NCBI GenBank assembly: GCA_963835085.1
Contig: CAWIED010000001.1
Span: 3,262,852 to 3,326,851, forward strand
DNA: 64,000 bases
Direction: 5' to 3'
DNA from: an uncultured Actinomycetota bacterium
GTDB lineage: Bacteria; Actinomycetota; Actinomycetes; Actinomycetales; CAWJMD01
Below are positions 8,647 to 26,490 of this stretch, piece after piece. How positions within the stretch are numbered: position 1 is the stretch's first letter; the number at the start of each line of letters is the position of its first letter. Below the pieces are notes generated by a model that saw only the letters and a list, made by a program, of their open reading frames with translations, was not told the DNA's origin and searched no databases. Position numbers and translations under genes: made by a program.

Positions 8647-8706
8647 GAGACCTCCCGATGGTCTGCTCGCGGTGGACGGCGAATGCGCTTCACAGTAGGA
8701 CGCGCC

Positions 8707-11262: not shown

Positions 11263-12132
11263 TCAGTCTGGCACTGAGGCCTGGTCGGCGGGCACCGCCC
11301 GGAGCCGGTCACGATAGGGCGATCTGGGATAGACCCCGAGAATCCGTAGATCGGTCGTGAAGAAGGCCAGCTCCTCCAGCGCCAGGGCGAGCGCCCGGTC
11401 GTCGGGATGGCCTTCCACATCGGCGTAGAACTGGGTGGAGACGAACGTGCCGTCGAGCTGGTAGCTCTCCAGTTTCGTCATGTTGACGCCGTTGGTGGCG
11501 AAGCCGCCGAGGCCCTTGTATAGCGCGGCTGGAATGTTGCGCACCCGGAAGACGAACGTGGTGATGGCGGGGTTCACCGGAGTATGGGCGGGCTCGCGGG
11601 CCAGCATGACGAAACGAGTGGTGTTGTGCTGCTCGTCTTCGACATTGCGGCGCAGGATCTCGAGCCCGTAGAGCTGGGCCGCGGCCTCGGGCGCCAACGC
11701 CGCCTGGGTCCGGTCGCCCGCCTGAGCCACTTGCCGGGCCGCGCCGGCGGTATCGCCGACGTCGAACGGCTTGAGCCCGAGTTCGCGGATCAGCCGTCGG
11801 CACTGCCCGAGGGCGTGCACGTGGCTGAGCACCTTGGTCAGGTCGCCGATCTGGGTGCCGGGCAGCGCCATCAGCTGAAAGCGGATGGGTAGGAAGTACT
11901 CGCCCACAATGTGCAGACCCGACTCGGGCAGCAGGTGGTGGATGTCGGCCACGCGACCCGCCAGGGAGTTCTCGATGGGAATGACCGCGAGGTCGACGCT
12001 GGCGTCTTTCATGGCATCGAAGCAGTCTTCGAACGTGGGGGCGGCCATGGCCTGCGCCTCGGGGTAGACCCGCTGGGCGACGAGATGTGAATTGGCGCCA
12101 GGCTCACCCTGATAGACCACGCGATTAACCAT
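11263..12132 (-). CDS. pheA: Prephenate dehydratase
   Basis: MVNRVVYQGEPGANSHLVAQ N-terminus and a C-terminal ACT-like region TTFVFRVRNIPAALYKGLGGFATNGVNMTKLES. The upstream 106 codons of the track ORF are Ala/Val-rich filler, so the start is set at ATG 12132. Confidence 0.85.
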   Translation of the reverse strand: MVNRVVYQGEPGANSHLVAQRVYPEAQAMAAPTFEDCFDAMKDASVDLAVIPIENSLAGRVADIHHLLPESGLHIVGEYFLPIRFQLMALPGTQIGDLTKVLSHVHALGQCRRLIRELGLKPFDVGDTAGAARQVAQAGDRTQAALAPEAAAQLYGLEILRRNVEDEQHNTTRFVMLAREPAHTPVNPAITTFVFRVRNIPAALYKGLGGFATNGVNMTKLESYQLDGTFVSTQFYADVEGHPDDRALALALEELAFFTTDLRILGVYPRSPYRDRLRAVPADQASVPD

Positions 12133-12175
12133 GATCGCAAGGCTACGGGCGTCCTCGGCGGTTACCGTGGGGGGC

Positions 12176-12901
12176 GTGCTGAAACGCCCCGTGGTGATTG
12201 CCACCTCGCTTGTCGTCGTGGCCGGCTGCGGCCTGGCTGGCTGCTCCAGGTCCGCTTCCAGCGCCGCTTCGATGAGCAGGTCCGCCACGAACACTGAGTC
12301 TGCGACCGCCACCTCAACGGCCTCCACGGCATCGCCCACTCCTTCAGCGACCGCCAGCAGCCGGCCTACCGCATCGAGCACCAGCAAGTCCGCGACAACG
12401 GGCGCGCACACCAGCACGCCGACAGCCACGAGCACGACGGCGAGGGGCAACGCGACAGCGGGCAGCCAGCCTGGAAGTGCCGCAACGGTGACCTATCACA
12501 ACAGCACCTTCGGCTTCACCGTGAAGGCCCCCAGCGGGTGGCAGCAGAAGGGACTGCGTGCCGGTGGCAAGGGCGCCGACTTCACCGGGCCCAACGGTGC
12601 CACCGCCGCGATCTACGGGTCGAACAACCTCGTCGGAGACAGCCCCGAAGGGATCTGCCAAGACCAGACGTCGGCGCTCACCGGCGACGGCGCCAACGCC
12701 ACGTACACGATGTCGGGCAATCGCTGTTGGGTCACGTCGAGCCAGGCCGGCATCGGTCGTCAACTGGTGACGTGGACTGGCTCGGGAAGCCTCAACACCA
12801 TCGACGTCAGCTACCCGCCAAATACCGGTGCCAGCATGACCTCGGTTGTGCAGCAGCTTGTTTCCGGGTTTACCCCGGGTGATCTGAGTACTGGGCACTG
12901 A
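12176..12901 (+). CDS. Putative secreted lipoprotein with a Ser/Thr/Ala-rich linker; function unknown
   Basis: Signal-peptide-like LKRPVVIATSLVVVAGCGLAGC (lipobox) followed by a low-complexity STA-rich stretch. Alternative starts are ATG 12131 and GTG 12167. Confidence 0.6.
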   Translation: MLKRPVVIATSLVVVAGCGLAGCSRSASSAASMSRSATNTESATATSTASTASPTPSATASSRPTASSTSKSATTGAHTSTPTATSTTARGNATAGSQPGSAATVTYHNSTFGFTVKAPSGWQQKGLRAGGKGADFTGPNGATAAIYGSNNLVGDSPEGICQDQTSALTGDGANATYTMSGNRCWVTSSQAGIGRQLVTWTGSGSLNTIDVSYPPNTGASMTSVVQQLVSGFTPGDLSTGH

Positions 12902-12928
12902 GTGAGCCGCACCATTCCTGACGGCCCC

Positions 12929-14272
12929 TCAGTCAGACGGCGGGATGTTCTGGTTGTGCCGGAAGATGTTGGCGGGATCCCACGCCTTCTTGATCTGGCG
13001 AAGCCGCGCGAAGCGCGCCGGGTCGAAGGCCGTACGCACTCGCGATGCGCCCTCCGCTCCGATGTAGTTGAGATAGACGCGCCCGTTGGACCAGGGCTTC
13101 ATAGCGCCGGCCAGTCGCCTGGTAAAGGCAATGTTCTCGGCATCGCCGCCAGGATCGGGCCACATCGACAGGTAGTGGATGCTGAGGAAGGCATGCCGAT
13201 TGCCGAATGCTGTGGCCTCGTCCGGAACCCGGGCGATCGCTCCACCGCAGCAGGTCAAGATGATCTGGGTAAGTGGTGACGCCGGCGGGAAGGCGTGGGA
13301 CACCAGGGCATCGATCGCCTCGTCCGGAAGGTCGTCGTAGAAGTCGGCGGTCCAGTAGTTACGCATCCCGGGGGGATTCGCCGGATCCAGCAGCTTCTGA
13401 AGCCGCACATACGGCATGGGGCCCACCAGGTTCGCGGCAGGCGGGCCGAACTCGGTGAGTGGCGCGAGCGCGGTGCGACCGGCCTCCACCTCTCCGACGT
13501 AGCTGACCACAACACCCACACACGGCTGACCGCGAGCGGGCTCGGGGACGAAGGGAGCGTCCGGCGCTGTGATCAGGGCGACGGCCGCGCCGACCTCGTC
13601 AGGCGCCTCGCGCATGACGTCGCGCCAGTTCCGCACCACCGGTCCGGCCAGCGCCGCCGGGTACAGGAGCATCCCGGCCAGGATGAGCGGGCCGACCGGA
13701 GCCAGCCGGAAGGTGAGTTCGGTGGCGATGCCGAAATTGCCGCCGCCGCCTCGGATGGCCCAGAACAAGTCTGGATTCTCGTCCTGCGACGCGGTCACGA
13801 GGTCGCCGGCGGCGGTAACGATCTCGGCGCCGAGCAGACTGTCGCACGAGTAGCCGAGCTTGCGCTCCAGCCAGCCGCTGCCGCTGCCCAGGGCAAGCCC
13901 CGCGACGCCGGTACTGGAGACCCGTCCGCCGGTCACTGCGAGACCGTGCTCCTGGGTGGCGGCGTCCAGCTGAGCCCAGCGGGTGCCACCGCCCACGCGC
14001 GCCGTAGCCGAGCCCGGGTCGACGATGACCTGGTCCAGGCCACGCAGGTCGACGCAGACGGCCCCGTCGGCCACGGCCGAACCCGTCACACCGTGGCCTC
14101 CGCCGTACACCGAGACCGTCAATCCGTCTGCCCAGGCGGCTCGCACCGCGGCGGCGACGTCGTGAGCGTCAGCGCACCTGACGATCCAGGCCGGGCGATG
14201 GTCGACGGTTGCGTTGAACACCTGACGGGCCGCGTCGTACGCGGGGTCGCCGGGGTAGATCGTGCCGTTCAT
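12929..14272 (-). CDS. FAD-linked oxidase (PCMH FAD-binding domain plus BBE-like C-terminus), paralogue A
   Basis: VYGGGHGVTG, LFWAIRGGGGNFGIATE and C-terminal FRHNQNI motifs. Start may be ATG 14272 or 14308. Confidence 0.8.
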   Translation of the reverse strand: MNGTIYPGDPAYDAARQVFNATVDHRPAWIVRCADAHDVAAAVRAAWADGLTVSVYGGGHGVTGSAVADGAVCVDLRGLDQVIVDPGSATARVGGGTRWAQLDAATQEHGLAVTGGRVSSTGVAGLALGSGSGWLERKLGYSCDSLLGAEIVTAAGDLVTASQDENPDLFWAIRGGGGNFGIATELTFRLAPVGPLILAGMLLYPAALAGPVVRNWRDVMREAPDEVGAAVALITAPDAPFVPEPARGQPCVGVVVSYVGEVEAGRTALAPLTEFGPPAANLVGPMPYVRLQKLLDPANPPGMRNYWTADFYDDLPDEAIDALVSHAFPPASPLTQIILTCCGGAIARVPDEATAFGNRHAFLSIHYLSMWPDPGGDAENIAFTRRLAGAMKPWSNGRVYLNYIGAEGASRVRTAFDPARFARLRQIKKAWDPANIFRHNQNIPPSD

Positions 14273-14324
14273 AGATGCAGCATCCCCGCTGGGCAGGCAG
14301 CCCACCATCCCGCATTTGCGGGGG

Positions 14325-15395
14325 TCAGGGACCGTGCAACACCTCGCGCTCCAAGGCCGGCTGGACGTAATCGACGAAGATCCTTGCCACCACCTCCCCG
14401 CGGCTGTTCACGCCACACTTGCCGAGGACCGCCTTGACGTGGTCGCGCACGGTGTGCAGGGACAGCCCCAAGTCGGTGGCGATCTCCTTGTCCGCAAGCC
14501 CACGAGACAGGTGCTCGACGATGCAGACCTCGCGGGGCGTCAGCCCCAAGCTTTCCATCGCCACCGGGATCAGGTCTGTAGGTCGGGCAGGTTCGATGAT
14601 CAAGGCGACGACGTCATCGATCTCAGTGCGCGCCGCGCTCGCCCGGAACCAAGACCCGGCGGCACCTCGCACCCGCGTACTCACGACCTGACCCGACGTG
14701 GCGGCACGCGCCTGCGCCACGAGCCCTGCCAGTAGCCCCGGAATGCGTTCACTGCGAGTTGCATCGAAAAGGGGGTCACTGCACACCTCGTCCAGAAGTC
14801 GACGGGCGTCCAGGGTGGCGTGAACCACTGTGCCGTCGCGATCGAGCATCACTATCCCCGACCCAATCCCGGGCTCCGCCTGTGCGGCGGCGCACCGCTG
14901 GAGCATGGCCGCGATCGGCCGAACAAGATCCCGGACGCGAGCGATCTCCTCGGCGGCAAAGGGCTCACTGCGAAGAATGTGAGCGAATCCGCGGCATTGC
15001 CCACCTACGCGGAAGGCGACTCGAAGCTCATCGTGAAAGTGAACCGGAGCGAAGATGTCGAGATAACGTCGCGCTTGCTGCGCCTGCCCGTCAGTGGCTT
15101 GCACCAGGGTTCGGACCGGATCGTCAGCGCGCGCCAGGTCTGTGAACTTGTTGACGCCTGTCTCTGAGTACTCGGAGCGCCAGAAGTCCTCGCAGGTGTC
15201 AGCTGAGATGCCCTCCACCAGACCCGCAATCGGCAGGAGTGTCATCGGGTCTACGGGCAGGAGAGCAGCATTCGTGAAAGACACGACCTCATGGAGAGCG
15301 GCCATGGCCGCCCTGAGCGTGCTGGAAAGGCCAGGTTCTCGCGTGCCCGCATCGGTGAAGAACTTTGGTCCGGACAGTTCTGTAGGGGCCCCCAT
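14325..15395 (-). CDS. LuxR-family transcriptional regulator with an N-terminal GAF/PAS-like sensor region, paralogue A
   Basis: C-terminal HTH LTPREVCIVEHLSRGLADKEIATDLGLSLHTVRDHVKAVLGKCGV. The N-terminal ~280 aa share architecture with 18681..19835. Confidence 0.8.
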   Translation of the reverse strand: MGAPTELSGPKFFTDAGTREPGLSSTLRAAMAALHEVVSFTNAALLPVDPMTLLPIAGLVEGISADTCEDFWRSEYSETGVNKFTDLARADDPVRTLVQATDGQAQQARRYLDIFAPVHFHDELRVAFRVGGQCRGFAHILRSEPFAAEEIARVRDLVRPIAAMLQRCAAAQAEPGIGSGIVMLDRDGTVVHATLDARRLLDEVCSDPLFDATRSERIPGLLAGLVAQARAATSGQVVSTRVRGAAGSWFRASAARTEIDDVVALIIEPARPTDLIPVAMESLGLTPREVCIVEHLSRGLADKEIATDLGLSLHTVRDHVKAVLGKCGVNSRGEVVARIFVDYVQPALEREVLHGP

Positions 15396-15490
15396 CGAGA
15401 CAGCCTACGAGCCATGGCTCTGTTATCGGTGGCTTTGTCACCCGATTTTGTGATGTGCGCCGACTGAGAGGAGCACCCGGCGCGACAGCC

Positions 15491-16894
15491 TCAGCCGTGC
15501 TGGCAGGGCGAAGCCCCGGCAGGGGCTCCGGCGCCGCTCAACCAGGTGGGCACGGCAAACTCCGGAAGCCGGCGCGGGTCGCCGACCGGGGCGTAGCGGC
15601 CGTCGACCAGGTGATACCCAAGCTGGGGCCCCTCGTCGACGATGCAGCGGACGGCTGCCACCAGGCGATCGACATCCTCCGACGACGATCCCACCCCGAG
15701 GCTGGCCCGCACGGCGCCCGCGGGCAGACCCAGCTTGGCCAGCAGCGGGTGGGCGCAGAACTTGCCGTCGCGCACGCCCACGCCGTACTCGGCCGACAGC
15801 ACTGCGGCGAGCAGCCCCGGGTCGATGCCGTCGACCACGAAGGTCACCACACCGATCGACGACACACTGTCGTCCCAGATTCGCACGACGCGAACCCCAT
15901 CGACGGCCTTCAGCCCGCCCACCAGGCGCTCGCGGAGAGCGCTCTCGTGTACTTCGAGCGCACCGCTCGGCAGCTCGCTCAGGGCCTCGCACGCGGCGGC
16001 CAGCGCCACCGCACCGAGCACGTTGGGAGTCCCGCCTTCATGCCGGGCTGGGGCCGGGGCCCAGTCGACCTCGTCGAGCCGGACGTTGCGGACGGCGCCT
16101 CCACCGGCGAGGTAGGGCGCGGCTGCGTCGAGCCAGTCGCGGCGGCCCACCAACGCCCCCACGCCGTACGGCGCGTAGAGCTTGTGGCCGGAGAGCGCGA
16201 GGTAGTCGATATCGCAACCGGCCAGATCGACCGGCTGATGCGGCGCCAGCTGGGCGGCGTCGACGCAGAGCCGGGCGCCGTGCGCGTGCGCCAAGTCGGC
16301 GATGGCCCGGATGGGCAACTGCTCCCCTGTGACATTGCTCGCGCCGGTGACCGAGACGAGAGCAGCCGGAGCCTCGATCAGAGCGGCCTTCAGCCGGTCG
16401 AGGCTCTCAGCCAGTGAGGGAGCTGCGCCCACGATGCGGTGGTGGCCTCGCTGCCAGGGCAGCAGGTTCGCGTGGTGTTCGAGGTCGAAGACCACGACGT
16501 CACCCTGCTCGAAGGGCACGGCCGAGGCCAGCAGGTTGAGTGCGTCTGTGGTGTTGCGGGTGAAGACGACGACGTCGTCGTCACGGGCGCCCAGGAACCG
16601 CGCCACCACCTGCCGCGAGCCCTCGAACAGAGCGGTGCTGACCTGCGAGGCCCAGCCCGCTCCGCGGTGCACAGAGGCGTAGAACGGGCGCGCCTCGGCC
16701 AGCCGCGCCTCCACGTGGGCAAGCGCGGGAGCACTGGCTGCGTAGTCGAGATTCACGTAACGGCAAGTGTTTTCGCCATTCCTGCGGGTTGCCAGGGGAA
16801 CCTGCAGGTCGGCCCCGGTCACCTCGAGCAACGGCGCGACGGTCTGCGAAGGGTGGGTTGAGATATGGCGATTCTGGTCGATGGTGATGCTCAT
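15491..16894 (-). CDS. Class-V aminotransferase-fold PLP enzyme (cysteine-desulfurase-like)
   Basis: PLP lysine context LALSGHKLYAPYGVGALVGR. 467 aa. SD GAGGGAG before ATG 16894. Confidence 0.8.
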   Translation of the reverse strand: MSITIDQNRHISTHPSQTVAPLLEVTGADLQVPLATRRNGENTCRYVNLDYAASAPALAHVEARLAEARPFYASVHRGAGWASQVSTALFEGSRQVVARFLGARDDDVVVFTRNTTDALNLLASAVPFEQGDVVVFDLEHHANLLPWQRGHHRIVGAAPSLAESLDRLKAALIEAPAALVSVTGASNVTGEQLPIRAIADLAHAHGARLCVDAAQLAPHQPVDLAGCDIDYLALSGHKLYAPYGVGALVGRRDWLDAAAPYLAGGGAVRNVRLDEVDWAPAPARHEGGTPNVLGAVALAAACEALSELPSGALEVHESALRERLVGGLKAVDGVRVVRIWDDSVSSIGVVTFVVDGIDPGLLAAVLSAEYGVGVRDGKFCAHPLLAKLGLPAGAVRASLGVGSSSEDVDRLVAAVRCIVDEGPQLGYHLVDGRYAPVGDPRRLPEFAVPTWLSGAGAPAGASPCQHG

Positions 16895-17059
16895 CTGGGT
16901 ACTCCCTCTGCTTCAGGGACCCGTAGGCCCGCGCTTGCCGGCACCGGATTCGGTGCGGCCAGGTCGTCACCCGGGGCACCCCACCGCGGAGGAGGGTTGC
17001 CGGTCAGCAAGCCGGGGCTGTGCGCTGACACTCATGACCTATCCCGACCAGAGTGAGCG

Positions 17060-17776
17060 ATGGACTCTGACCTGTCCACCGAAACGGACTCCTCGTCTCA
17101 ATATATGGACATCCTTGGCAGGGCGGCAGCGCCCGGTAAGGTTGCCGTCACTAGCAGTTGGGCAGGGAACTCACCGGAGGCAAAGTTGGCTCAGACCGTT
17201 CTCATCACTGGATCCACGTCTGCTGTCGGGCCTATGGCCGACGCAGTTCGTGCCGCAGGCGCAACGCCGATCGTGGCCCAGACTCCCGACGAGCTCACGG
17301 CGGCGATCGCCGACCTCGAGGAAGGCGGCTTGGAGTACTACATCCAGTTGCCCTCCAGCATTCGACCCTCTGGTTCTACGGTCACCAAGCGCGTCCACGA
17401 GTTTCTCGTCGAGGGGCTGCTCGAGCGTTACCGAGCCGCTGAAGTCGTGCTGCCGGTGCTGGCCGACACCGCCCGTGTCGTACTCGTGTCGGGCAACGTC
17501 AACACCGAGACCTCGGCCCCTGACGACCGGGCGGCCCGGCTTTCCCTCGTGCACGTGCTCAAGCACGCGATGCGCGCCGACAAGTCGTCGTCCACCTTCG
17601 ACATCGAGGTTGCCGTGCCCAACACGGAGCCCGACGTCGTCGTGCGGTCGGTGCTGAACGGAACGCCCCTGGAGCCGGAGGAGACGGAGGCCCCGAAGGC
17701 TGCCGCGGTCGACCCGGGGCTTGACTACTTCAACTGGCGGATCGAGATGCTCGGCGCGATGCGGTCGGAGTTCTGA
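17060..17776 (+). CDS. Hypothetical protein, Rossmann/SDR-like N-terminus with a degenerate glycine motif
   Basis: VLITGSTSAVGPMADAV resembles the SDR TGxxxGxG motif, but no catalytic YxxxK was seen. The first ~60 codons look poorer in third-position G/C than neighbouring genes (by eye). Confidence 0.5.
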   Translation: MDSDLSTETDSSSQYMDILGRAAAPGKVAVTSSWAGNSPEAKLAQTVLITGSTSAVGPMADAVRAAGATPIVAQTPDELTAAIADLEEGGLEYYIQLPSSIRPSGSTVTKRVHEFLVEGLLERYRAAEVVLPVLADTARVVLVSGNVNTETSAPDDRAARLSLVHVLKHAMRADKSSSTFDIEVAVPNTEPDVVVRSVLNGTPLEPEETEAPKAAAVDPGLDYFNWRIEMLGAMRSEF

Positions 17777-17876
17777 GTCGACGGCTCAGCCGCGCCTCAG
17801 GCGCAGGGCCGAGGCGCGCTGAGGTTGCCGACAGCCGTCGAAGGCGGCGGCACCGACCGATCCTCGGAGACTGCAC

Positions 17877-18608
17877 ATGGCGACGACAGTGCTCGACGAT
17901 GCCGCAGTAGAGCGGGTCCTGGTGATCTCGGCCCACCCCGACGACCACGACTTCGGGGTGGCCGGCACCATCGCCGCCTGGGTCGCCTCAGGCATCGAGG
18001 TGACGATCCTTGTGCTGACAGACGGCCAGGCCGGCGGTTTCGACGAGACCATCGACCGGGCCGAGATGCCCGGCATCCGGCACCGCGAACAGCGTGCCGC
18101 TGCAGCTGCGCTCGGGGTGAGCGACGTGCGTTTCGCGGGCTACGTCGACGGCGAGCTGGAGCCGACGCTCGAGGTGGTGCGTGACATCGTCCGCGTGATC
18201 CGGCAGGTGCGTCCGCAGCGGATGGTGTTCCAGTCGTCGGTGCGCAACTACGCGCGCATCGGCGGCTCGCATCCCGATCACCTGGCGGCAGGCGAGGCCG
18301 CCGTCCGGGCGCTGTTTCCGGCCAGTCGCAACCCTTTCGCGTTCCCCGAACTGCTCGAACACGAGGGCCTGCCGCCGTGGACGGTGCCGGAGATGTGGGT
18401 GATGGCCCACAACGAGGTCAATCACTACGTCGATGTCACCGACTACCTACCGGCCAAGCTGGCCGCGCTGCGCTGCCATGTGTCGCAGCACACCGACCAG
18501 GACCAGATCGCGACCTTCGTGCAGCAGTGGATGGCCCTTTCTGCCGCCGAGGCCGGCTTGCCTGAAGGTCGGTTCGCCGAAGTGTTCGCCGTCTACCCCT
18601 GCGGTTGA
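17877..18608 (+). CDS. PIG-L family deacetylase (LmbE/MshB-like)
   Basis: VLVISAHPDDHDFG and HPDH motifs. 243 aa. Confidence 0.85.
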   Translation: MATTVLDDAAVERVLVISAHPDDHDFGVAGTIAAWVASGIEVTILVLTDGQAGGFDETIDRAEMPGIRHREQRAAAAALGVSDVRFAGYVDGELEPTLEVVRDIVRVIRQVRPQRMVFQSSVRNYARIGGSHPDHLAAGEAAVRALFPASRNPFAFPELLEHEGLPPWTVPEMWVMAHNEVNHYVDVTDYLPAKLAALRCHVSQHTDQDQIATFVQQWMALSAAEAGLPEGRFAEVFAVYPCG

Positions 18609-18680
18609 TGTCGAACGCGTACTCAGGCCGAGACCCGCGCCACATCAACAGGTTTCACGTAGCCTGACGAGCATCGCAGG

Positions 18681-19835
18681 TCAGGCGTACCAGCCCGATG
18701 GGGTGAGCGCGCCGCCCATCCTCGGGACGTACTGGTCGAAGTAGATACGGGCGATCAACTCTCGGCGCGATCGGACGTCGGCTTTGTCGAAGACCGACTT
18801 GAGATGATCTTGAATCGTGTAGGACGACAGGTGGAGCGTCCTGGCGATCTCCTTGGTATCGACGCCCTGGAGTACGAGCTGGGTCACGTCGCGTTCGCGC
18901 GGGGTGAGTCCGAACGCCGCGACCACGAGTGCCACGATCTCCGGCGGCCGCGCCTCCTCGATGGTGATCACCACATCGCCGTCGCGGTCGCCGAAGGTGC
19001 TCAGCGGCCCGCCTTGCAGCACAAGCCACATCCCGGTCGCAGTGCGCACCCGGCACCGCGGCAAGCCCTCGGTCTCGCCCCGCGCATAGCGGCGAGCGGC
19101 CCCGATGAGCGCGGCCACGGGCGACAGCGGGTCGCCATGCGCGGGACCGGTCACCAGCTGCCCGAGCCGGCGTTCGGCTGCGGGCGTCATCTGGGTGACC
19201 TGATTGTCGGGGCCGACGATGATCACCGCCGGACCGGCGCCGACCATGGACACTCCGTCATCGACGACGTCGGCGAGCCGGGTGAGCAACCCGGCCCGGA
19301 CTCCGTGGGCGAACGGAACCGCTAGGGAGGCAAGGAACTCGATCTCCGCCGCATCGAACGGCGGGTCATCGTCGCCGCGGAAGAGCGCCATCGCACCCCA
19401 CACCTCGCGACCGTCGCGAAAGGCTAGCCGGGCCTCGTCGGCATAGCCGAAGTGCGGCCTCATGAAGGTGGCCATCCGGGTTGAGCGCTCGACCTCTCCC
19501 CCGGTGACGAGGTGAACCCCGGCTGCCGCGACCGTCGCGCGGGCGAGCTCGCTGAAAGTGGTCTCTTCGACAGAGCCGTACTCCAGCAGCCCGAACTCGT
19601 GATCATGACTATTGCGCGAGTGCAGATCGCCATACTTGCGGGCGCTGGTGAGGATGTGGGTGCTCGGATCATGCGTACCCACACACGCACTCACCCACGG
19701 CACGGCGCGCCTGACCGACAACACCGCCTCTTCGAGGAACGACTCGAGCTCCAGGCCGGCGCGGGCAACGACGCCTACGTCTTGGCGCACTCGCTCGGCA
19801 GTCAATGTCTGGCCCACATCAGCAGTGTCGCGCAT
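18681..19835 (-). CDS. LuxR-family transcriptional regulator with an N-terminal GAF/PAS-like sensor region, paralogue B
   Basis: C-terminal HTH LTPRERDVTQLVLQGVDTKEIARTLHLSSYTIQDHLKSVFDKADV. Same architecture as 14325..15395. Confidence 0.8.
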   Translation of the reverse strand: MRDTADVGQTLTAERVRQDVGVVARAGLELESFLEEAVLSVRRAVPWVSACVGTHDPSTHILTSARKYGDLHSRNSHDHEFGLLEYGSVEETTFSELARATVAAAGVHLVTGGEVERSTRMATFMRPHFGYADEARLAFRDGREVWGAMALFRGDDDPPFDAAEIEFLASLAVPFAHGVRAGLLTRLADVVDDGVSMVGAGPAVIIVGPDNQVTQMTPAAERRLGQLVTGPAHGDPLSPVAALIGAARRYARGETEGLPRCRVRTATGMWLVLQGGPLSTFGDRDGDVVITIEEARPPEIVALVVAAFGLTPRERDVTQLVLQGVDTKEIARTLHLSSYTIQDHLKSVFDKADVRSRRELIARIYFDQYVPRMGGALTPSGWYA

Positions 19836-19982
19836 CTGAGCGCGCAGAGGTATCCCACATTTCTGGGTGGTGCGCTCCCCCAGAAGCGGCGTCTACCAAG
19901 TCCACAGCAGTTCGGGATAGTCCGCCGCCGCCGCAGCGTCGCAAGGTTGCCACCCGTCCACCACCTGAGGAAAAGGAACGCC

Positions 19983-21350
19983 ATGACCACTGCCCCAGAC
20001 ATCACACCCCTCACCGCCCTGGTCAGCGACTGCGAGATCCACCTTGCCGGCGACGCCGGCTACGACGCCGCGCGGATGCCGTGGAACGTCGCCATCGACC
20101 AGCGGCCGGCTGCGGTCGCCATCCCCCGCACCATCCACCAGGTGCAGGACGTGGTGCGCGCCGCCGCGGCGGCCGGCCTGAAAGTCGCACCCCAGAGCAC
20201 CGGTCACGCGGCGGCCGCCCTTGCCGAACGCCCCTTGGACGATGTCGTTCTCGTGCGTCTGTCCGAGCTGACCGGTGTCTTGGTCGAGCCGACCACTGGC
20301 ACGGCGAGAATTCTCGGCGGCACCCTGTGGCGCGACGTCATCGACGCCGCCACCGCGCGGGGCCTGACCGCGCTGCACGGCTCGTCGCCGGACGTGGCCG
20401 TCGTCGGTTACGTCCTCGGCGGAGGCTTGTCGTTCTACGGGCGCCTGCACGGGGTGGCCGCCAATTCGATCCGGTCAGTCGAGGTCGTGACCGCCGACGG
20501 CAGCCTGATCAGAGCGTCGGCAACCGAGTATCAGGAACTCTTCTGGGCGGTCAGGGGTGGCGGGGGCAACTTCGGCGTCGTCGTGGCTATCGAGCTCGAA
20601 CTGCTGCCCTACCCCGACGTCGTCGCCGGCATGCTGCTCTGGGATCGCGAGCGCGCCCCCGAGGTCGTGCGCCGCTGGGTCGAATGGAGCCGTACGGCCC
20701 CGGAGAGCGTCACCACCTCGCTGCGAGTGATGAGCTTTCCCCCAATCCCCGAGCTGCCCCCGTTTCTGTCGGGGCGCGACATCGTCGTCATAGACGGTGC
20801 AGTCGTAGAGACGGATGAGCGGACGGCCGAAGTGCTCGAGCCATTGCGTGCCCTGGCACCGGAACTGGACACCTTCGGTCGCATTCCCTCGGCGGCCTTG
20901 CTCGATGTGCACATGGACCCGCCCGGGCCGTCGCCGGTGGTCGGCGACCATTGCGTTCTCGGAGAGCTTGACGACGCGGCGGTCGAGGCCTTCTTGGCTC
21001 AGGTCGGGCCGGGAACCGGGAGCGGTCTCATTTTTGCCGAACTGCGCCAGCTCTCAGGAGCTTTCGCGCGGCCGAGCGCCGGGGGCGGAGTGCTCAGCTC
21101 AGTGGACGGCGAATACGCGCTGATGTGCGTCGCAACGGCGCCCACCCCTCAAGCCGTTGTCGAAGGCCGGGTCGCGGCCTTCTCTGCGGTGCGGGCGATG
21201 AGCCGCTGGTCGCAGGCCGGCTTGGTGCCGACCTTCACCGAGACCCGGGTTCAGGCGAGCCGCTTCTACGGCGCCGACCTGGCCGAACTGTGCCGGATCC
21301 GGGATGCGGTCGACCCGAACCGGCTCTTCGTGGCAAACCATCCCCTCTGA
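19983..21350 (+). CDS. FAD-linked oxidase (PCMH/BBE-like), paralogue B
   Basis: LFWAVRGGGGNFGVVVA and C-terminal DPNRLFVANHPL. Start set at ATG 19983 (MTTAPDITPL). The track ORF upstream of that overlaps the LuxR gene on the opposite strand. Confidence 0.85.
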   Translation: MTTAPDITPLTALVSDCEIHLAGDAGYDAARMPWNVAIDQRPAAVAIPRTIHQVQDVVRAAAAAGLKVAPQSTGHAAAALAERPLDDVVLVRLSELTGVLVEPTTGTARILGGTLWRDVIDAATARGLTALHGSSPDVAVVGYVLGGGLSFYGRLHGVAANSIRSVEVVTADGSLIRASATEYQELFWAVRGGGGNFGVVVAIELELLPYPDVVAGMLLWDRERAPEVVRRWVEWSRTAPESVTTSLRVMSFPPIPELPPFLSGRDIVVIDGAVVETDERTAEVLEPLRALAPELDTFGRIPSAALLDVHMDPPGPSPVVGDHCVLGELDDAAVEAFLAQVGPGTGSGLIFAELRQLSGAFARPSAGGGVLSSVDGEYALMCVATAPTPQAVVEGRVAAFSAVRAMSRWSQAGLVPTFTETRVQASRFYGADLAELCRIRDAVDPNRLFVANHPL

Positions 21351-21366
21351 GCTTGCCACGGCGCGC

Positions 21367-21396
21367 GCCCGGCTCCACGCTCTCGTGGAGCCGGGC
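21367..21396 (+). terminator. Hairpin after the FAD oxidase gene (12-bp perfect stem)
   Basis: GCCCGGCTCCAC-gctctc-GTGGAGCCGGGC followed by TCGTTG. Begins 17 nt after the stop at 21350. Confidence 0.55.
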
Positions 21397-21503
21397 TCGT
21401 TGCCGTGTCCGTACTGGTCACCGGTCCTCAGTTGCATTTCGCCGCGACGAAGGCACTTCCTTCGCTCATCAAGGCGTCCCACGCCCAACCTGTCATGGCA
21501 GAG

Positions 21504-21600
21504 GTTGCGCGATCTCGACTACATCGAGAGGTTCACCCTCGGCCTCCTCGTGCTCGCCACGGTCACAGATCGAGGCACGATGTAGTCCAGATTGCGCTAC
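21504..21600. repeat. ~97-bp element with terminal inverted repeats (MITE-like), copy 1
   Basis: The left end GTTGCGCGATCTCGACTACATCG is the reverse complement of the right end CGATGTAGTCCAGATTGCGCTAC with 3 mismatches in 23. A related copy lies at 50102-50199 in the opposite internal orientation. Confidence 0.7.
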
Positions 21601-21798
21601 CCCCATCGCAAGAGGACTGTGTTTCACCCCAAATCACCAACCCGACCTCACGCCTTTGCGCATCCGGCTCGATTCGGCAACCGGCGCGCACGGGGAAGAC
21701 TGTTGTGGCAACCATGGACTAATGGATCCGCCGATTTTCGGCGCGCCAACAAACCAACCCGCGTCGAAGCACAAGATTGCTCGGCTCCGGCTAGATCC

Positions 21799-23007
21799 TC
21801 ATGAGCTGGCAATCGCCTCCACGCCCGCGAGCAGCCGCTCGACGTCGTCGAGATTGGAATAGGGCACCAGCCCCGCGCGCACGGCACCTTCGTCGCCGAG
21901 GCCCAGGTGGCGCGAGGCTTGCAGCGCGTAGAAGCTACCCGCCGGAGCGTTCACGGCTCGGTCGGCGAGCTGCGCCGCCACAGCGGCGGACGGCACACCG
22001 CGCACCTCGAACAACACCGTCGGAGTACTACGTGTCGGCGACCCCACGAGACCAACTCCCGCGATCGAGCCCAGGCCCGCCACTAGATGGGCGAACAACG
22101 AGTCTTCGTAGTCGGCCAGGGCCGCGAAGGAGGCATCGAGCCGCTCACTCCTGGTGCCCTCCGTCGGCACCAGACCGGCAAGCACCTCAACCGCCGCGGT
22201 GGTGCCGGCCATGAGCTCGTATGGCAGCGTGCCCAACTCGAACCGCTCGGGAACCGCATCGCTCGACGGCACGAGCTTGTCAGGCCGCAAAGAATCCAAC
22301 AGGTCTGGCGAGGCGGCCAACACCCCACAATGTGGTCCGAGGAACTTGTATGGCGAGCAGGCCAGGAAATCGACGCCGAGGTTCGCGAGGTTCGTTCGCA
22401 CGTGCGGCACGTGGTGCACCGCGTCGAGATACACCAAGGCGCCGCTCTGGTGGGCGACTGCGGCGATCGCGGCGATGTCGGGTCGGGTGCCGACGAGGTT
22501 CGAGGCAGCGGTGAAAGCCACCAAGCGGGTCTTGTCGCTGAGCTGCGCCGACACCTGCTCGACGGCGAGATCGCCTGTCTCGGTGTCGAAGTCGACCATC
22601 CGCACGGTGGCGCCGACAGCGCTCGCCGCCGCCAGCCAGGGGCTGATATTGGAGTCATGGTCGAGCCGCGTGAGCACGAGCTCGTCGCCGGCCCGCCAGG
22701 TCTTGGCCAGCGCGCGCGAGGCGTCGTAGGCCAGAGCCGTGGCGCTACGGCCGAAGACGATGCCCGCGGGGTCGGCACCGAGAAGATCGCCCAAGGCGCT
22801 GCGGCAGTCGGCCACCACCGCGTCGGCCCGGCGGGCAGCGGCGGTCACCGGTCCCCGATTGGCGATGGCCGACGTGAGGGTCGCCGCTACGGCGTGAGCC
22901 ACCGGCGTGGGCACCTGGGTGCCCCCCGGACCGTCGAAATGGGCTGCGCCATCGCGCAGCGCCGGGAACAAGGCACGGACCCGCTCAACGTCGTAACACA
23001 CGCGCAA
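21799..23007 (-). CDS. Cysteine desulfurase-like class-V PLP enzyme
   Basis: 402 aa with the PLP lysine context FLACSPYKFLGPHCGVLAA. Class-V aminotransferase fold. Confidence 0.8.
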   Translation of the reverse strand: MRVCYDVERVRALFPALRDGAAHFDGPGGTQVPTPVAHAVAATLTSAIANRGPVTAAARRADAVVADCRSALGDLLGADPAGIVFGRSATALAYDASRALAKTWRAGDELVLTRLDHDSNISPWLAAASAVGATVRMVDFDTETGDLAVEQVSAQLSDKTRLVAFTAASNLVGTRPDIAAIAAVAHQSGALVYLDAVHHVPHVRTNLANLGVDFLACSPYKFLGPHCGVLAASPDLLDSLRPDKLVPSSDAVPERFELGTLPYELMAGTTAAVEVLAGLVPTEGTRSERLDASFAALADYEDSLFAHLVAGLGSIAGVGLVGSPTRSTPTVLFEVRGVPSAAVAAQLADRAVNAPAGSFYALQASRHLGLGDEGAVRAGLVPYSNLDDVERLLAGVEAIASS

Positions 23008-23087
23008 ACCCTAGCTGTACGAGGTCAGGACGTGGTCGACGCCAGGATGCGGCTGTCGCGCTCGATCTCTTGGCGGCGCATGGTCCG

Positions 23088-23465
23088 TTACCGGCTAGAA
23101 GCAGAGCCTGGAATCTCGTCGAGCGAGTAGTAGACCGGCAGACCTCGGCCTTGCGCGATCGCTACGTCCTGGTCGGCACCGCGGGATTCCCCAGGCAGCC
23201 GCAGCACTGCGTCACAGTGCTGCAGAAGGCGCTCGGCCGTGGGGTACATGACCTCGGCTGCCAGCGCGTCGGTCGGGCCGCTTGCTCCCGCGCTCGCCAG
23301 CACGGGCAGAGCCACCCACTCGCCGATCATCGGGACATGACCGGCCCGGAAGATCGGCCAGGCCGCCTCCTCGAGCCGCTTGAGATTCCGCGCCATCAGT
23401 TCTGAGTTGCCGCCCGTGCCCGACGCGTAGGGGCCGGCGATGAGAATCAACATAGGCTTGTTCAC
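23088..23465 (-). CDS. Hypothetical protein, nucleoside 2-deoxyribosyltransferase-like / DUF4406-like (tentative)
   Basis: 125 aa. MLILIAGPYASGTGGNSELMARNLKRLEEAAWPIFRAGHVP resembles the small flavodoxin-like family I recall as DUF4406. Divergent from the DeoR gene. Confidence 0.5.
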   Translation of the reverse strand: MNKPMLILIAGPYASGTGGNSELMARNLKRLEEAAWPIFRAGHVPMIGEWVALPVLASAGASGPTDALAAEVMYPTAERLLQHCDAVLRLPGESRGADQDVAIAQGRGLPVYYSLDEIPGSASSR

Positions 23466-23474
23466 ACTCGGAAC

Positions 23475-23503
23475 AATACAGCAAGATCAAGCAAAATACA
23501 GCA
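23475..23503. promoter_or_regulatory. Direct repeat AATACAGCA x2 (20-bp period) in an AT-rich divergent promoter region; candidate DeoR operator
   Basis: AATACAGCA occurs at 23475-23483 and 23495-23503. A CATAAT -10-like hexamer lies at 23502-23507. Confidence 0.4.
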
Positions 23504-23532
23504 TAATCATGCAACAACAGGAGGGAACCGGA

Positions 23533-24300
23533 ATGCTTGCGGCCGCCCGCAAAGACCTGCTCTTAGATCGACTGCGCCGCGACGGGCGGATCGTCGCCAA
23601 GGAGATCGCGGCAGAGCTTGGCCTCTCTGAAGACAGCATCCGCCGTGACCTACGCGAACTCGACAACGCCGGCCTGGCCGTGCGGGTGTACGGCGGCGCG
23701 CTGCCCGCATCCCCGGCCGTCGCCGACTACGCCAGTCGCGGATCCGTCGCCCCGGACAGCAAGCGACGCGTTGCTGCCGCCGCCGTAGCGCTCATCGAGC
23801 CTGGTGCCACGGTGATCCTCGACGGCGGCACCACGACCCTCGCGATGGTCGATGCCCTGCCCAGAACATTCCAATGCACCGTCATCACCCATAGTCCGAC
23901 CATCGCCGCCGCGCTGCTCGACCACGCCGCCAACGTCTTCCTGATCGGCGGCCAGCTGTTCAAACACTCCGCCGTGGCCTGCGGCGCGGCCGCCGTCGAG
24001 GCCGCGAACAAGATCAGCGCCGACCTGTTCTTCCTAGGGGTCACCGGCGTGCATCCCACCGCAGGCCTGACAACCGGCGACCCGGACGAGGCCGCGATGA
24101 AACGCGCCCTCGCCGCACGCGCAGCCGACACCTACGTACTCGCCAGCGACGAGAAGATCGGCGCGGCATCCCGTTACAGCGTCCTGCCCCTCGACGCCAT
24201 CACCGGGATCATCACCGATATGGACAAGAGCAATCCAGCTCTGCGCGAACTCGCCGCGGCTGGAATCACACTCATCCAAGCCGATCGACACGCGCGTTGA
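23533..24300 (+). CDS. DeoR/GlpR family transcriptional regulator
   Basis: HTH LLLDRLRRDGRIVAKEIAAELGLSEDSIRRDLRELDNAGL followed by a sugar-phosphate-sensor-type C-terminus. GGAGGG SD before ATG 23533. Confidence 0.85.
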   Translation: MLAAARKDLLLDRLRRDGRIVAKEIAAELGLSEDSIRRDLRELDNAGLAVRVYGGALPASPAVADYASRGSVAPDSKRRVAAAAVALIEPGATVILDGGTTTLAMVDALPRTFQCTVITHSPTIAAALLDHAANVFLIGGQLFKHSAVACGAAAVEAANKISADLFFLGVTGVHPTAGLTTGDPDEAAMKRALAARAADTYVLASDEKIGAASRYSVLPLDAITGIITDMDKSNPALRELAAAGITLIQADRHAR

Positions 24301-24310
24301 CACCAGTTGG

Positions 24311-25726
24311 TCATCTGGCCACCGCCCTGGCCACCAGCCGGGCCACCTGTGCTGCGGCCGATGCCGGCAACTGGGCATAGCCGAGCACCAGTCCGCGGGC
24401 GGATGCCTGGGTGCAGTAGGCCGACAGCGGTTCGGTCTCCATTCCCTGGTCGGCAAGCCACGACACGATGGCCACGTCGTCGGCACCCTCGTCGAGGCTG
24501 AGCACCAGATGCAGCCCCGCGTCCACCCCCAGCAGCTCGTGGTTCGGCAGCAGCCTGGTGAGTTCTCGGGCCAGCGACTGGCGGCGGTGGGCATACTCGC
24601 GGCTGGCGCGCGCCAGGTGGCGGCTGAGGGCTCCGGAGGAGATGAATCGCGCGAGCATCCGGGCGGCGGTGGGATCCACACCCAACGACAGCCGGCGGAC
24701 GGCCGTCGCAATGGGGTCGACCCAGCGCTCGGGCGCCACCACCCAGGCCAGTCGCAGCCCGGTGGTGAGCATCTTCGAGGCGGTGCCCAGATAGACCACA
24801 TGCTCGTCGCCTCCGCCGAGGGCCCGCATGGCCGGCAAAGGCGATACGCCGTAACGGAATTCACCGTCGTAGTCGTCTTCGATGATCAACGCCGAGTGCC
24901 GGGCGGCCCACGCCAGTAGATCGCTACGCCGCTCCACGGGCAACCGTCCGCCCAGGGGGTACTGATGCGCGGGCGTGACGTAGACGGCTGCGTCGTCGGC
25001 GCGCAGGAGAGCCGGGTCGAGACCGTCCGCGTCTACCGCGACACTGCGCACCGTGGCCCCCACCTCGGCAAGCGCGCTCGGCACCTCGCGATAGCCCGGA
25101 TCTTCCACGGCCACCGTCCGCCGTTGCAGGTCCAGGCCATCGAACACCGCGCGAAGGCCGGCTGCGATACCGGGCACCATGACCACCCGGCCCGGGTTCA
25201 CCACGACACCGCGAGTTCTCCGCAGGTGATCGACCAGGGCCGCGGCAAGCTCGTGATGGGCCAACGGGTCGACCGCTGTAGCCACCTGCTCTGCCGACGA
25301 CGACCAGGCACGGCGCCAGGCCCGGGCGTCGATGAGGTCGCTGTCGGGACTGCCGGCGCGCACCACCCAGCGCGGTCCGGTCGGTTCACGGCAAGGGACG
25401 GTCGTTCGGCCGGCACCACTGTCGGCCACGTGGGTGCCGGCCCCCAGCCTCGCCGCCCGGTCGGAGCCTGGCGCGACGAACGTGCCCGACCCCGCTACCG
25501 AGGTGACGTACCCGGCGGCCAGCAGCTCGTCGTAGGCATCGATCACCGCCGCCCTGCCGATGCCAAGCTGACCGGCCAGGCCGCGACTCGACGGCAGGGG
25601 GTCACCGGGACGCAACCTGCCTCCGGCGATAGCTTCGACCACCGCGTCGGCCACCCGGTGTCGCAGCGGGGCGGCACCCGGTGCGAGCGTGAAGGCGATG
25701 CTGCTGCCCTGCGGGGTGCGAGCCAT
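24311..25726 (-). CDS. MocR-type regulator (GntR HTH fused to an aminotransferase-like PLP domain)
   Basis: N-terminal GntR wHTH (GRLRPGDPLPSSRGLAGQLGIGRAAVIDAYDELLAAGYV) followed by a fold-type-I aminotransferase domain. 471 aa. Confidence 0.85.
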   Translation of the reverse strand: MARTPQGSSIAFTLAPGAAPLRHRVADAVVEAIAGGRLRPGDPLPSSRGLAGQLGIGRAAVIDAYDELLAAGYVTSVAGSGTFVAPGSDRAARLGAGTHVADSGAGRTTVPCREPTGPRWVVRAGSPDSDLIDARAWRRAWSSSAEQVATAVDPLAHHELAAALVDHLRRTRGVVVNPGRVVMVPGIAAGLRAVFDGLDLQRRTVAVEDPGYREVPSALAEVGATVRSVAVDADGLDPALLRADDAAVYVTPAHQYPLGGRLPVERRSDLLAWAARHSALIIEDDYDGEFRYGVSPLPAMRALGGGDEHVVYLGTASKMLTTGLRLAWVVAPERWVDPIATAVRRLSLGVDPTAARMLARFISSGALSRHLARASREYAHRRQSLARELTRLLPNHELLGVDAGLHLVLSLDEGADDVAIVSWLADQGMETEPLSAYCTQASARGLVLGYAQLPASAAAQVARLVARAVAR

Positions 25727-25806
25727 GACACCGGAGAATACCGGTCTCGTCAGATCACGCGATTCTGGCGCAAAGCTCTAGACCAGATAGCCGCTATCGT
25801 GACGGC

Positions 25807-26490
25807 ATGGCAACGGCTCAGAACCACGTCATCAACCGGCACCGCGAACGCTCCCGCACCGAACGGGCTCAGCTCGACGCAGTGCTCGACGCGATTCCGT
25901 ACGGCACGTTGTGCACCGTGGTCGATGGTGCACCCTGGGTGGTGCCCATGCTCTTCCACCGCGATGGTGATCGCATTCTGTTGCACGGCTCCACCGGGGC
26001 CGGCGCGCTGCGTCGGGTCGCCGCCGGCGCTCCCGCCGCGTTGTGCGTCATGATCTTCGACGGCGTGGTGGCGGCCGCCTCCACGTTCGACTCGTCGGCC
26101 AACTACCGCTCGGCGGTGGTGTACGGCACGCTCGCCCCGCTTGCGGGCGACGACAAATGGAATGCCCTCAACGCCTTGTCGGACGGTGTGATCCCTGGCC
26201 GCACACAAGAGGTGCGCGACATGACCGACAAGGAGCAGGCCGCCACGCTGGCCATGGCGCTGCCCATCACGGGAGGCGCTTGGACGGTCAAGGTCCGCAC
26301 CGGAGGCCCCGGCGAGGATGAGGAGCACGCCGGCGTGTGGGAAGGCGTCATCCCCGCGAGGATCGTCTTCGACGAACCGGTTGCCGCCCCGTGGGTGCCC
26401 ACCGACCAGGCGGTGCCCGAGTCCATCCGTCGGCTCAGCGAGCACGGTTGGCCGGGGTACTCGGCCGAGCCCGTCTGTGAGCCCGCATGA
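25807..26490 (+). CDS. Pyridoxamine 5'-phosphate oxidase family (FMN-binding split-barrel) protein
   Basis: RAQLDAVLDAIPYGTLCTVVDGAPWVVPMLFHRDGDRILLHGS is typical of this family. Divergent from the MocR gene. Confidence 0.75.
   Translation: MATAQNHVINRHRERSRTERAQLDAVLDAIPYGTLCTVVDGAPWVVPMLFHRDGDRILLHGSTGAGALRRVAAGAPAALCVMIFDGVVAAASTFDSSANYRSAVVYGTLAPLAGDDKWNALNALSDGVIPGRTQEVRDMTDKEQAATLAMALPITGGAWTVKVRTGGPGEDEEHAGVWEGVIPARIVFDEPVAAPWVPTDQAVPESIRRLSEHGWPGYSAEPVCEPA

Follow-up and report, generated by a model that had tools for sequence, protein, structure and literature searches.

The 64,000-nucleotide stretch analysed here, referred to below as the window (contig CAWIED010000001.1, positions 3,262,852 to 3,326,851), comes from an uncultured Actinomycetota bacterium. 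Between its positions 12929 and 23007 lie two genes for LuxR-type regulators, two for flavin adenine dinucleotide (FAD)-binding oxidases of the BBE type and two for class-V pyridoxal 5'-phosphate (PLP) enzymes, together with genes for a PIG-L protein and a small Rossmann-like protein. An earlier note on this DNA described the first three families as a regulator, oxidase and PLP enzyme module that occurs twice around the PIG-L gene. Comparison with related genomes suggests a different picture, in which a self-contained unit of two genes, for a LuxR regulator and a BBE-type oxidase, has probably entered a conserved sulfur/PLP backbone twice and independently (pair A and pair B).

The GC content of the window is ~68%, and GC at third codon positions (GC3) marks one clear reading frame per gene. 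All genes named in the earlier note are real high-GC3 open reading frames (ORFs) at or near the coordinates that it gave, and Pfam and NCBIfam confirmed their family assignments. The features of the region are as follows.

12929-14272, minus strand: oxidase A, the second gene of pair A; Pfam FAD_binding_4 and BBE; EncM-like
14325-15395, minus strand: luxR A, the first gene of pair A; GerE domain at residues 285-336
15491-16894, minus strand: class-V PLP enzyme A (PLP A), backbone; Aminotran_5, 286 bits; SufS-like, under the family cutoff
16926-17039, minus strand: SAM-IV riboswitch in the PLP A leader, backbone; Rfam RF00634, 114 bits
17186-17776, plus strand: 196-aa protein with a predicted short-chain dehydrogenase/reductase (SDR)- or Rossmann-like fold, backbone; longest ORF 17060-17776
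17877-18608, plus strand: PIG-L deacetylase/amidase, backbone; PIG-L, 97 bits
18681-19817, minus strand: luxR B, pair B; C-terminal GerE domain; longer ORF to 19835
19824-19829, minus strand: GACACT, putative -10-like hexamer of the luxR B promoter, 6 nt upstream of the GTG start
19852-19869: putative operator site 2, conserved palindrome ATCCCA-N6-TGGGAT, window copy CACCCAGAAATGTGGGAT
19901-19918: putative operator site 1, conserved palindrome ATCCCG-N8-CGGGGA, window copy ATCCCGAACTGCTGTGGA
19983-21350, plus strand: oxidase B, pair B, divergent from luxR B; Pfam FAD_binding_4; McrA-like
21368-21395, plus strand: perfect 12-bp stem-loop CCCGGCTCCACG-CTCT-CGTGGAGCCGGG, just past the stop codon of oxidase B
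21799-23007, minus strand: class-V PLP enzyme B (PLP B), backbone; Aminotran_5; TIGR01976

Three start codons deserve comment. The start of oxidase A at 14272 (447 aa) is probably better than the longest-ORF start at 14308, because the orthologue at a second locus, L134, has 447 aa. Alignment of orthologues places the start of LuxR B most likely at GTG 19817 and not at ATG 19835, and the start of the small protein was revised to TTG 17186, which lies behind a GGAGG.

The apparent repeat and the conserved backbone

The resemblance between the two sets of genes is limited. LuxR A and LuxR B are 30% identical over their full length, and the two oxidases, like the two PLP enzymes, are 32% identical. 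The helix-turn-helix (HTH) regions of the regulators, which had been called nearly identical, share 29 of 64 residues (45%); the GGGGNFG motif is indeed present in both oxidases. PLP A, luxR A and oxidase A lie on one strand, whereas luxR B and oxidase B are divergent, and PLP B, convergent to oxidase B, has a divergent DeoR gene on its other side. No direct DNA repeat was found across positions 12500-23200. The absence of such repeats, the protein identities of 30-32% and the differing gene order and orientations led us to reject a recent segmental duplication, and with it the idea of a three-gene module repeated twice. Further copies of the oxidase, PLP or PIG-L families were not found elsewhere in the 64-kb window.

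Homologues of the small protein, which has no Pfam match, led to related contigs, among them L136, L138 and L139. The contig L136, from a metagenome-assembled genome labelled 'Actinomycetales bacterium', carries the backbone genes in the order and orientation of the window. Its proteins are identical to those of the window at 80% for prephenate dehydratase (PDT), 38% for a lipoprotein-like ORF, 74% for PLP A, 66% for the small SDR-like protein, 83% for PIG-L, 70% for PLP B, 49% for the MocR regulator, 66% for Pyridox_ox_2 and 61% for EamA. Overall, backbone proteins are 49-83% identical to those of the related genomes, with 38-40% for the lipoprotein. An extra PNPOx-like gene lies between the small protein and PIG-L in L136, which has no LuxR, BBE oxidase or DeoR gene. 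In L138 and L139, PDT, the lipoprotein, PLP A, the small protein and PIG-L are again present and the LuxR and oxidase genes absent, and in all three contigs the PLP A orthologues (73-74% identical) have neither of these genes nearby.

The boundaries of the pairs are sharp. DNA homology to L136 ends at ~12817 and restarts at ~15501 around pair A; around pair B it ends at 18602, the end of PIG-L, and restarts at 21819, the end of PLP B. In L136, PIG-L and PLP B face each other as immediate convergent neighbours, pair B being absent. Each LuxR-oxidase pair therefore occupies a gap between convergent backbone genes, at ~12.9-15.5 kb for pair A and ~18.6-21.8 kb for pair B. A search of the pair boundaries for insertion scars (repeats or leftover homology) found none; homology simply stops at the gene ends.

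The backbone has a regulatory signature of its own. The SAM-IV riboswitch 32 nt upstream of the PLP A start matches the full RF00634 model (E 5e-21, gathering score 38) and is retained in front of the orthologous PLP A genes of L136 (5235-5348, minus strand) and L138 (2864-2977, minus strand), with 110-114 bits across the copies. Its position implies, at the level of sequence, a role for PLP A in S-adenosylmethionine, methionine or sulfur metabolism. PLP A matches TIGR01979 (SufS) at 292 bits against a cutoff of 475, and in alignment it retains the PLP lysine (SGHK) and the cysteine (FCAHP). PLP B matches TIGR01976, 'cysteine desulfurase-like', at 443.7 against a cutoff of 352; its FYALQ stands opposite FCAHP of PLP A, with Tyr in the place of Cys. 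The PIG-L protein falls under the cutoffs for BshB1, BshB2, Mca and MshB.

The small protein (ORF 17060-17776) has no Pfam or NCBIfam match and belongs to a very rare family, with 15 homologues among 5.8 billion proteins. Its AlphaFold2 model (pLDDT 81) is closest in Foldseek to short SDRs (TM ~0.5), and it has TGSTSAVG instead of a glycine-rich motif, in support of the earlier description of a Rossmann-like protein with a degenerate cofactor motif. It is encoded near PIG-L in 4 of 4 contigs examined and, in those contigs long enough to show it, near the riboswitch-controlled PLP A. The combination of a SAM-IV riboswitch and a SufS-like PLP enzyme beside a rare SDR-like protein and a PIG-L enzyme points to sulfur metabolism, and the PLP enzymes and PIG-L probably form a separate conserved unit in sulfur or PLP metabolism. 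Because of this unit, the triad is, on the sequence comparisons given here, a coincidence of position.

The opposite view is that two functional modules of regulator, oxidase and class-V PLP enzyme act together with PIG-L, their target being an amino-sugar or thiol conjugate, as the earlier note had supposed. The three families do appear twice in 10 kb, but L136, L138 and L139 keep the backbone without either pair, and no class-V PLP gene was found near the LuxR gene in any of ~130 LuxR-family loci (80 genome loci and 51 pair-B-related loci). While luxR A and oxidase A follow PLP A on the same strand after a gap of 95 bp, PLP A stands under the conserved riboswitch, PLP B is convergent to oxidase B, and the two PLP enzymes are of different subfamilies, as the Cys/Tyr difference illustrates. 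One point does favour a link between PIG-L and the oxidases: a different PIG-L gene, 33% identical to that of the window, is located inside the oxidase operon at three pair-B-related loci (L087, L088 and L090, two of which are the same sequence), whereas the window gene is the backbone orthologue found in L136. Synteny thus largely refutes joint action of PIG-L and the PLP enzymes with the pairs, which we consider very unlikely.

Other parts of the neighbourhood are worth recording. On one side, the flank contains PDT, a class-III aminotransferase and carotenoid genes, and on the other DeoR, a MocR-type GntR-aminotransferase, Pyridox_ox_2, EamA and BenE. The longest PDT ORF (11263-12450, minus strand, 395 aa) has an N-terminal extension of ~100 aa that overlaps the Ser/Thr/Ala-rich lipoprotein-like ORF on the opposite strand (12131-12901, plus strand); its true start is probably near 12150, since the L136 orthologue has 284 aa. 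The genes for a phytoene/squalene synthase and a Rieske-DUF5914 protein, of carotenoid type, are at 7690-9603 (minus strand), 3.3 kb from pair A. Within 12929-23007 there is, as had been stated, no polyketide synthase (PKS), nonribosomal peptide synthetase or ribosomally synthesised and post-translationally modified peptide core enzyme; given these carotenoid-type genes, the accompanying statement that there is no terpene enzyme holds only inside that interval.

The DeoR regulator (23440-24300, plus strand) lies between PLP B and MocR and represents a third indel in the same backbone, as PLP B adjoins MocR in L136. The MocR protein has 471 aa here and 572 aa in L136. Its gene is divergent from Pyridox_ox_2 and EamA (24311-27512), an arrangement kept in L136 and L137, and the block looks like a separate regulatory unit related to PLP or vitamin B6. 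A PADLOC scan for anti-phage defence systems gave merely weak HTH matches.

The regulator-oxidase pair and its control region

The adjacency of regulator and oxidase, by contrast with that of the PLP enzymes, extends well beyond this locus. Close relatives of LuxR B (67-83% identical) were found in Nocardioides, Nocardia and Pimelobacter, and its orthologues range from 51 to 83% when metagenomes are included. In the three orthologue contigs with Pfam-labelled genes, a FAD_binding_4 gene encoding 453-460 aa lies divergently upstream in 3/3. A metagenome scan contributed 47 further loci related to pair B. An oxidase B orthologue (52-74% identical) was located upstream on the opposite strand in 22 of 23 distinct loci that encode a LuxR at least 51% identical to LuxR B and have informative upstream DNA. 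The exception is a Miltoncostaea megaplasmid, whose LuxR is 51% identical, and LuxR B relatives at 49% identity are without the oxidase. The identities of LuxR and oxidase to their window counterparts co-vary (Spearman 0.85, P 2e-6, n=20), as expected for co-inherited partners, and the other neighbours of the pair differ in every locus examined.

In the wider LuxR family, a BBE-type oxidase is located within 700 bp in 14 of the 80 best genome loci, 13 times divergently upstream, where ~1.3 would be expected from how densely such genes occur beyond 3 kb in these loci (Poisson P 2e-10). These adjacency counts were taken from tblastn coordinates; a GC3-based gene caller missed the LuxR gene in 20 of the 80 loci. 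By these counts the adjacency of regulator and oxidase is far in excess of chance. The two-gene pairing, which is kept in Nocardioides, Nocardia, Pimelobacter, Streptomyces and further actinobacteria, is on these sequence neighbourhoods real and widespread, and is an ordinary regulator-plus-enzyme arrangement. Literature searches for this regulator-oxidase pair found no paper describing it.

Pair A has a narrower distribution. LuxR A has few close relatives, the nearest being 59-60% identical. At L134, a LuxR A relative (59%) is followed 51 bp downstream on the same strand by an oxidase A orthologue (71%) in an unrelated context.

Variations on the pair were also observed. The oxidase of pair-B relatives is usually monocistronic. 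In 11 of these relatives (L090, L093, L095, L096, L097, L099, L100, L101, L105, L107 and L108), a RidA/L-PSP gene lies just upstream of the LuxR gene on the oxidase strand, and between oxidase and LuxR where the contig includes the oxidase; the PIG-L gene of L087, L088 and L090 has the equivalent place. Pair B of the window has neither a RidA nor a PIG-L insert. In Pimelobacter simplex and one metagenome contig (L082, 9128-10270; L086, 1893-2570), the LuxR gene is followed in tandem by a paralogue whose product is 63-65% identical to LuxR B. Plasmid carriage was considered and set aside: megaplasmid LuxR relatives are at most ~51% identical and lack the oxidase, giving no direct sign of plasmid mobility.

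The 165-bp divergent region between luxR B and oxidase B, which the earlier note had singled out at 19.8-20.0 kb, does carry conserved palindromes, and its design was read from an alignment of the orthologous divergent regions. In the window and 8 distinct orthologous loci, sites 1 and 2 start 49-50 bp apart. Among the orthologous intergenic regions compared, site 2 does not shift in position, and all but L122 match it with 0-2 mismatches. A [CG]ACA[CA]T hexamer lies 21-23 nt past site 2, with ATG or GTG 6-7 nt further on, in 9 distinct orthologous loci and the window. The hexamer may be a -10-like luxR promoter element, and a start codon so close to it implies a leaderless mRNA; LuxR B is thus probably translated from a leaderless mRNA at GTG 19817, with site 2 centred at ~-43 of this start. 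Site 1 is ~73 bp upstream of the oxidase B ATG, whose ribosome-binding region is GGAAAAGGAA.

We infer that the palindromes are the binding sites of the regulator. More distant LuxR-oxidase pairs have analogous palindromes, GATCCCG..CGGGGA and CCCCC-N6-GGGGG. A search of the 64-kb window for a second pair B operator site with at most 2 mismatches returned site 2 itself as the sole match, which fits the differing recognition helix of LuxR A. An operator link from LuxR B to pair A or to the backbone genes was accordingly discarded, as the search matched only its own site.

Promoter and terminator consensus scans were uninformative in this high-GC DNA. The stem-loop at 21368-21395 has no T-tract, for which reason the consensus scan missed it, and is likely, from its sequence and place, the terminator of oxidase B. 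The 448 bp past oxidase B (21351-21798), which start with this hairpin, contain no convincing ORF, have a GC content of 62% against 68% around them and gave no Rfam match.

Several points weigh against the acquisition of two independent pairs or narrow it. To tell insertion in the window from loss in the relatives would take a species tree, and the argument for insertion is the many unrelated contexts of the pairs. Pair A was seen in one other locus, L134, and a LuxR A relative in Propioniciclava (59%) has no oxidase nearby. Comparison of the luxR A upstream region with L133 and L134, too few orthologues for such an alignment, gave no shared palindrome. About 80% of the wider LuxR family does not stand beside a BBE oxidase, so the family is not oxidase-specific. 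The neighbourhood samples consist of the best-scoring LuxR matches and are not random, and the metagenome contigs include near-duplicates. Finally, binding, induction and enzyme activity of the pairs are proposals from sequence and structure models, and the substrate suggested below is an indirect guess, with two pocket residues of McrA not kept in oxidase B.

Sensors, oxidases and the proposed working of the pairs

GerE (PF00196) is the sole significant Pfam domain of both regulators, an HTH_23 match on LuxR A being below cutoff. No Response_reg or other receiver domain was matched by Pfam in either protein, and the database name 'response regulator' is therefore wrong for them. The first ~280 aa of LuxR A have no Pfam match, and LuxR B has the same architecture. 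Some homologues carry precomputed GAF, GAF_2 or PAS_4 matches, and the window proteins have none by Pfam. The AlphaFold2 model of LuxR B (pLDDT 89.3, pTM 0.86, from a 43-sequence alignment) resembles GAF domains in its N-terminal domain, including DosS GAF-A (2w3g, TMt 0.71), cyanobacteriochrome and phytochrome GAFs and 6oap, and the PAS/LOV-LuxR HTH regulators EL222 and VqmA in the rest. No full-length structural analogue was found by Foldseek (TMq at most 0.34).

Both proteins are predicted to be GAF-PAS-LuxR(HTH) one-component factors, in agreement with the GAF/PAS-like sensor described earlier. VqmA (PAS-LuxR HTH, ligand DPO) and EL222 (LOV-LuxR HTH) are likewise cytoplasmic one-component proteins in which a PAS-type sensor controls a C-terminal HTH; the window regulators differ by an extra N-terminal GAF-like domain, and sequence similarity is confined to the HTH. 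At E<=1e-10, the family defined by the 295-aa sensor module contains 557 clusters (50% identity), most of them 360-390 aa long. The full-length matches of LuxR A (177 bits) and LuxR B (146 bits) to NF041232 (BagY/FevT), against a cutoff of 700, suggest membership of the same broad family but not equivalogs.

These folds raise the question of what is sensed. The closest sensor folds bind cofactors (DosS GAF-A, the cyanobacteriochrome and phytochrome GAFs, and the LOV domain of EL222), and the regulators might respond through a GAF/PAS cofactor to O2, nitric oxide, light or redox state, with the oxidase as one output among many. No invariant Cys or His suited to heme, bilin or a flavin adduct is listed among the family-wide conserved residues, however. 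The family also has other partners: in 12 Nocardia and Streptomyces loci (L015, L023, L024, L037, L040, L044, L046, L049, L059, L062, L079 and L080, at ~6.2-7.9 kb in each) the LuxR gene is divergent from the gene for a PF13454 (FAD-NAD(P)-binding) protein of ~500-560 aa, which takes the place of the BBE oxidase, and a cupin is paired with it in 4 other loci. The LuxR family thus seems to partner with different redox enzymes, as a sensor of a physical or redox signal would allow; yet the tight one-to-one co-inheritance and identity co-variation of pair B are typical of substrate-responsive local regulators, and we judge such a signal to be quite unlikely. The pairing kept across genera favours a ligand-sensing LuxR coupled to a BBE-type oxidase, as had been suggested.

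Both oxidases appear to be BBE-like members of the VAO/PCMH family with a predicted covalent flavin. FAD_binding_4 (PF01565) was matched at 96 bits in oxidase A and 80 bits in oxidase B against a cutoff of 26.4. The BBE-type C-terminus claimed for both is confirmed by Pfam in oxidase A (PF08031, 44 bits, above cutoff); oxidase B has no Pfam match to PF08031, and its tail, YGADLAELCRIRDAVDPNRLF, aligns with the BBE tail of McrA. At the covalent-FAD histidine, His75 of oxidase B aligns with His64 of McrA, and GGGH of oxidase A with GGGH of EncM.

Oxidase B has its best PDB match in McrA of Streptomyces lavendulae, a mitomycin radical oxidase (9R43, 204 bits over the full length; bioRxiv 10.1101/2025.11.28.691146), with which it shares the BBE-like VAO/PCMH fold class, a length of ~450 aa and the covalent His. 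The residues proposed to contact mitomycin in McrA are R256, E298, D308, E339 and F367 (bioRxiv 10.1101/2025.11.28.691146). In oxidase B, E298 is present as Asp and D308, E339 and R341 are kept, whereas R256 and F367 are replaced by Asp and Ala. With these losses and an overall identity of ~35%, oxidase B was not accepted as an McrA orthologue, and the window has no mitomycin genes. McrA works alone: it re-oxidises a reduced quinone drug and so protects the cell, a mode of action in keeping with the self-contained arrangement of the pair. In two Streptomyces loci (L022 and L045), oxidases ~50% identical to McrA stand divergently beside this LuxR family.

The best PDB match of oxidase A is EncM, which acts as a flavin-N5-oxide oxygenase in the making of enterocin (full-length match, 351 bits, E 1e-103), followed by McrA (249 bits). 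Oxidase A and EncM share the GGGH motif and the BBE domain. Of the positions that we take to bind substrate in EncM, Y249, E355 and N383 are Ala, Ile and Ile in oxidase A, and only Q353 is kept. Oxidase A was rejected as an EncM orthologue: no type II PKS or other enc genes are located near it, and the orthologous pair at L134 is likewise isolated.

A third group of relatives comes from clusters derived from 3-amino-4-hydroxybenzoate (3,4-AHBA), in which GriT/NspT/BagY/FevT and GriA/NspA/BagK/BagG represent the same pair of protein families. Homologues of both families occur in the gri (grixazone) and nsp (nitrosobenzamide) clusters (PMC6692506), and the accession numbers of nspT and nspA are consecutive, suggesting adjacency (PMC6692506). 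In the papers searched, no operator or regulatory link was reported for GriT or NspT. The pairs of the window could, in this light, be remnants or satellites of a specialised-metabolite pathway, with the oxidase in a tailoring or biosynthetic role, as proposed for GriA, NspA, BagK and BagG or shown for EncM, and the LuxR regulating genes elsewhere.

The best NCBIfam matches of all four window proteins are indeed the bagremycin/ferroverdin families (NF041226 and NF041227 for the oxidases, NF041232 for both regulators), and oxidase A matches EncM at 351 bits, but the NCBIfam scores of 146-290 bits are 4-5 times below the curated cutoffs of 700-850. The gri, nsp, bag and fev genes belong to multi-gene clusters with Streptomyces antibiotic regulatory protein (SARP)-type regulators. 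The window pairs, in contrast, are isolated two-gene units placed in terminator gaps of a backbone of primary metabolism; the flanks, in the window as in the related loci, contain no AHBA synthase, PKS or other core enzyme; and across loci the neighbours change and the oxidase usually stands alone. A biosynthetic role of this kind is in our view unlikely.

For self-contained pairs in a conserved backbone, the following working can be proposed. A LuxR B dimer would bind both palindromes of the divergent region, site 1 on the oxidase side and site 2 on the luxR side. A small molecule bound by the GAF/PAS module would switch transcription of oxidase B and of luxR B itself, and oxidase B would then oxidise that molecule or a close relative using O2. 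The ligand of the regulator would thereby be the substrate of the oxidase. As a low-confidence guess by analogy, this substrate may be a redox-active aromatic amine or hydroquinone, for example an aminophenol or aminoquinol, because of the similarity to McrA and EncM, the NCBIfam matches to 3,4-AHBA clusters, and the RidA-like or PIG-L inserts of many pair-B relatives, which hint at imine or N-acetyl-amine chemistry.

It is possible, although doubtful, that the pair is a widespread mobile actinobacterial sense-and-oxidise resistance unit that generalises the 'redox relay' of McrA. If so, the signal for the regulator would be an aromatic compound that redox-cycles or has been activated by reduction, for instance an aminoquinol, aminophenol or hydroquinone antibiotic, and the induced oxidase would return the compound to its harmless oxidised form, while the RidA-like and PIG-L genes of some versions would handle quinone-imine or N-acetylated forms. 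The genome would then carry two sensors of different specificity, one coupled to an EncM-like and one to an McrA-like enzyme.

For genome mining, the locus is a caution that a seemingly repeated 'cluster' can be a coincidence, here apparently of two small mobile regulator-enzyme pairs in terminator gaps beside two paralogous backbone genes. It also corrects an annotation, as the regulators are predicted GAF-PAS-LuxR proteins and not response regulators. With its candidate operators and putative leaderless promoter, the regulator of pair B lends itself to ligand screens or biosensor development, and its partner oxidase is a candidate McrA-like detoxification enzyme.

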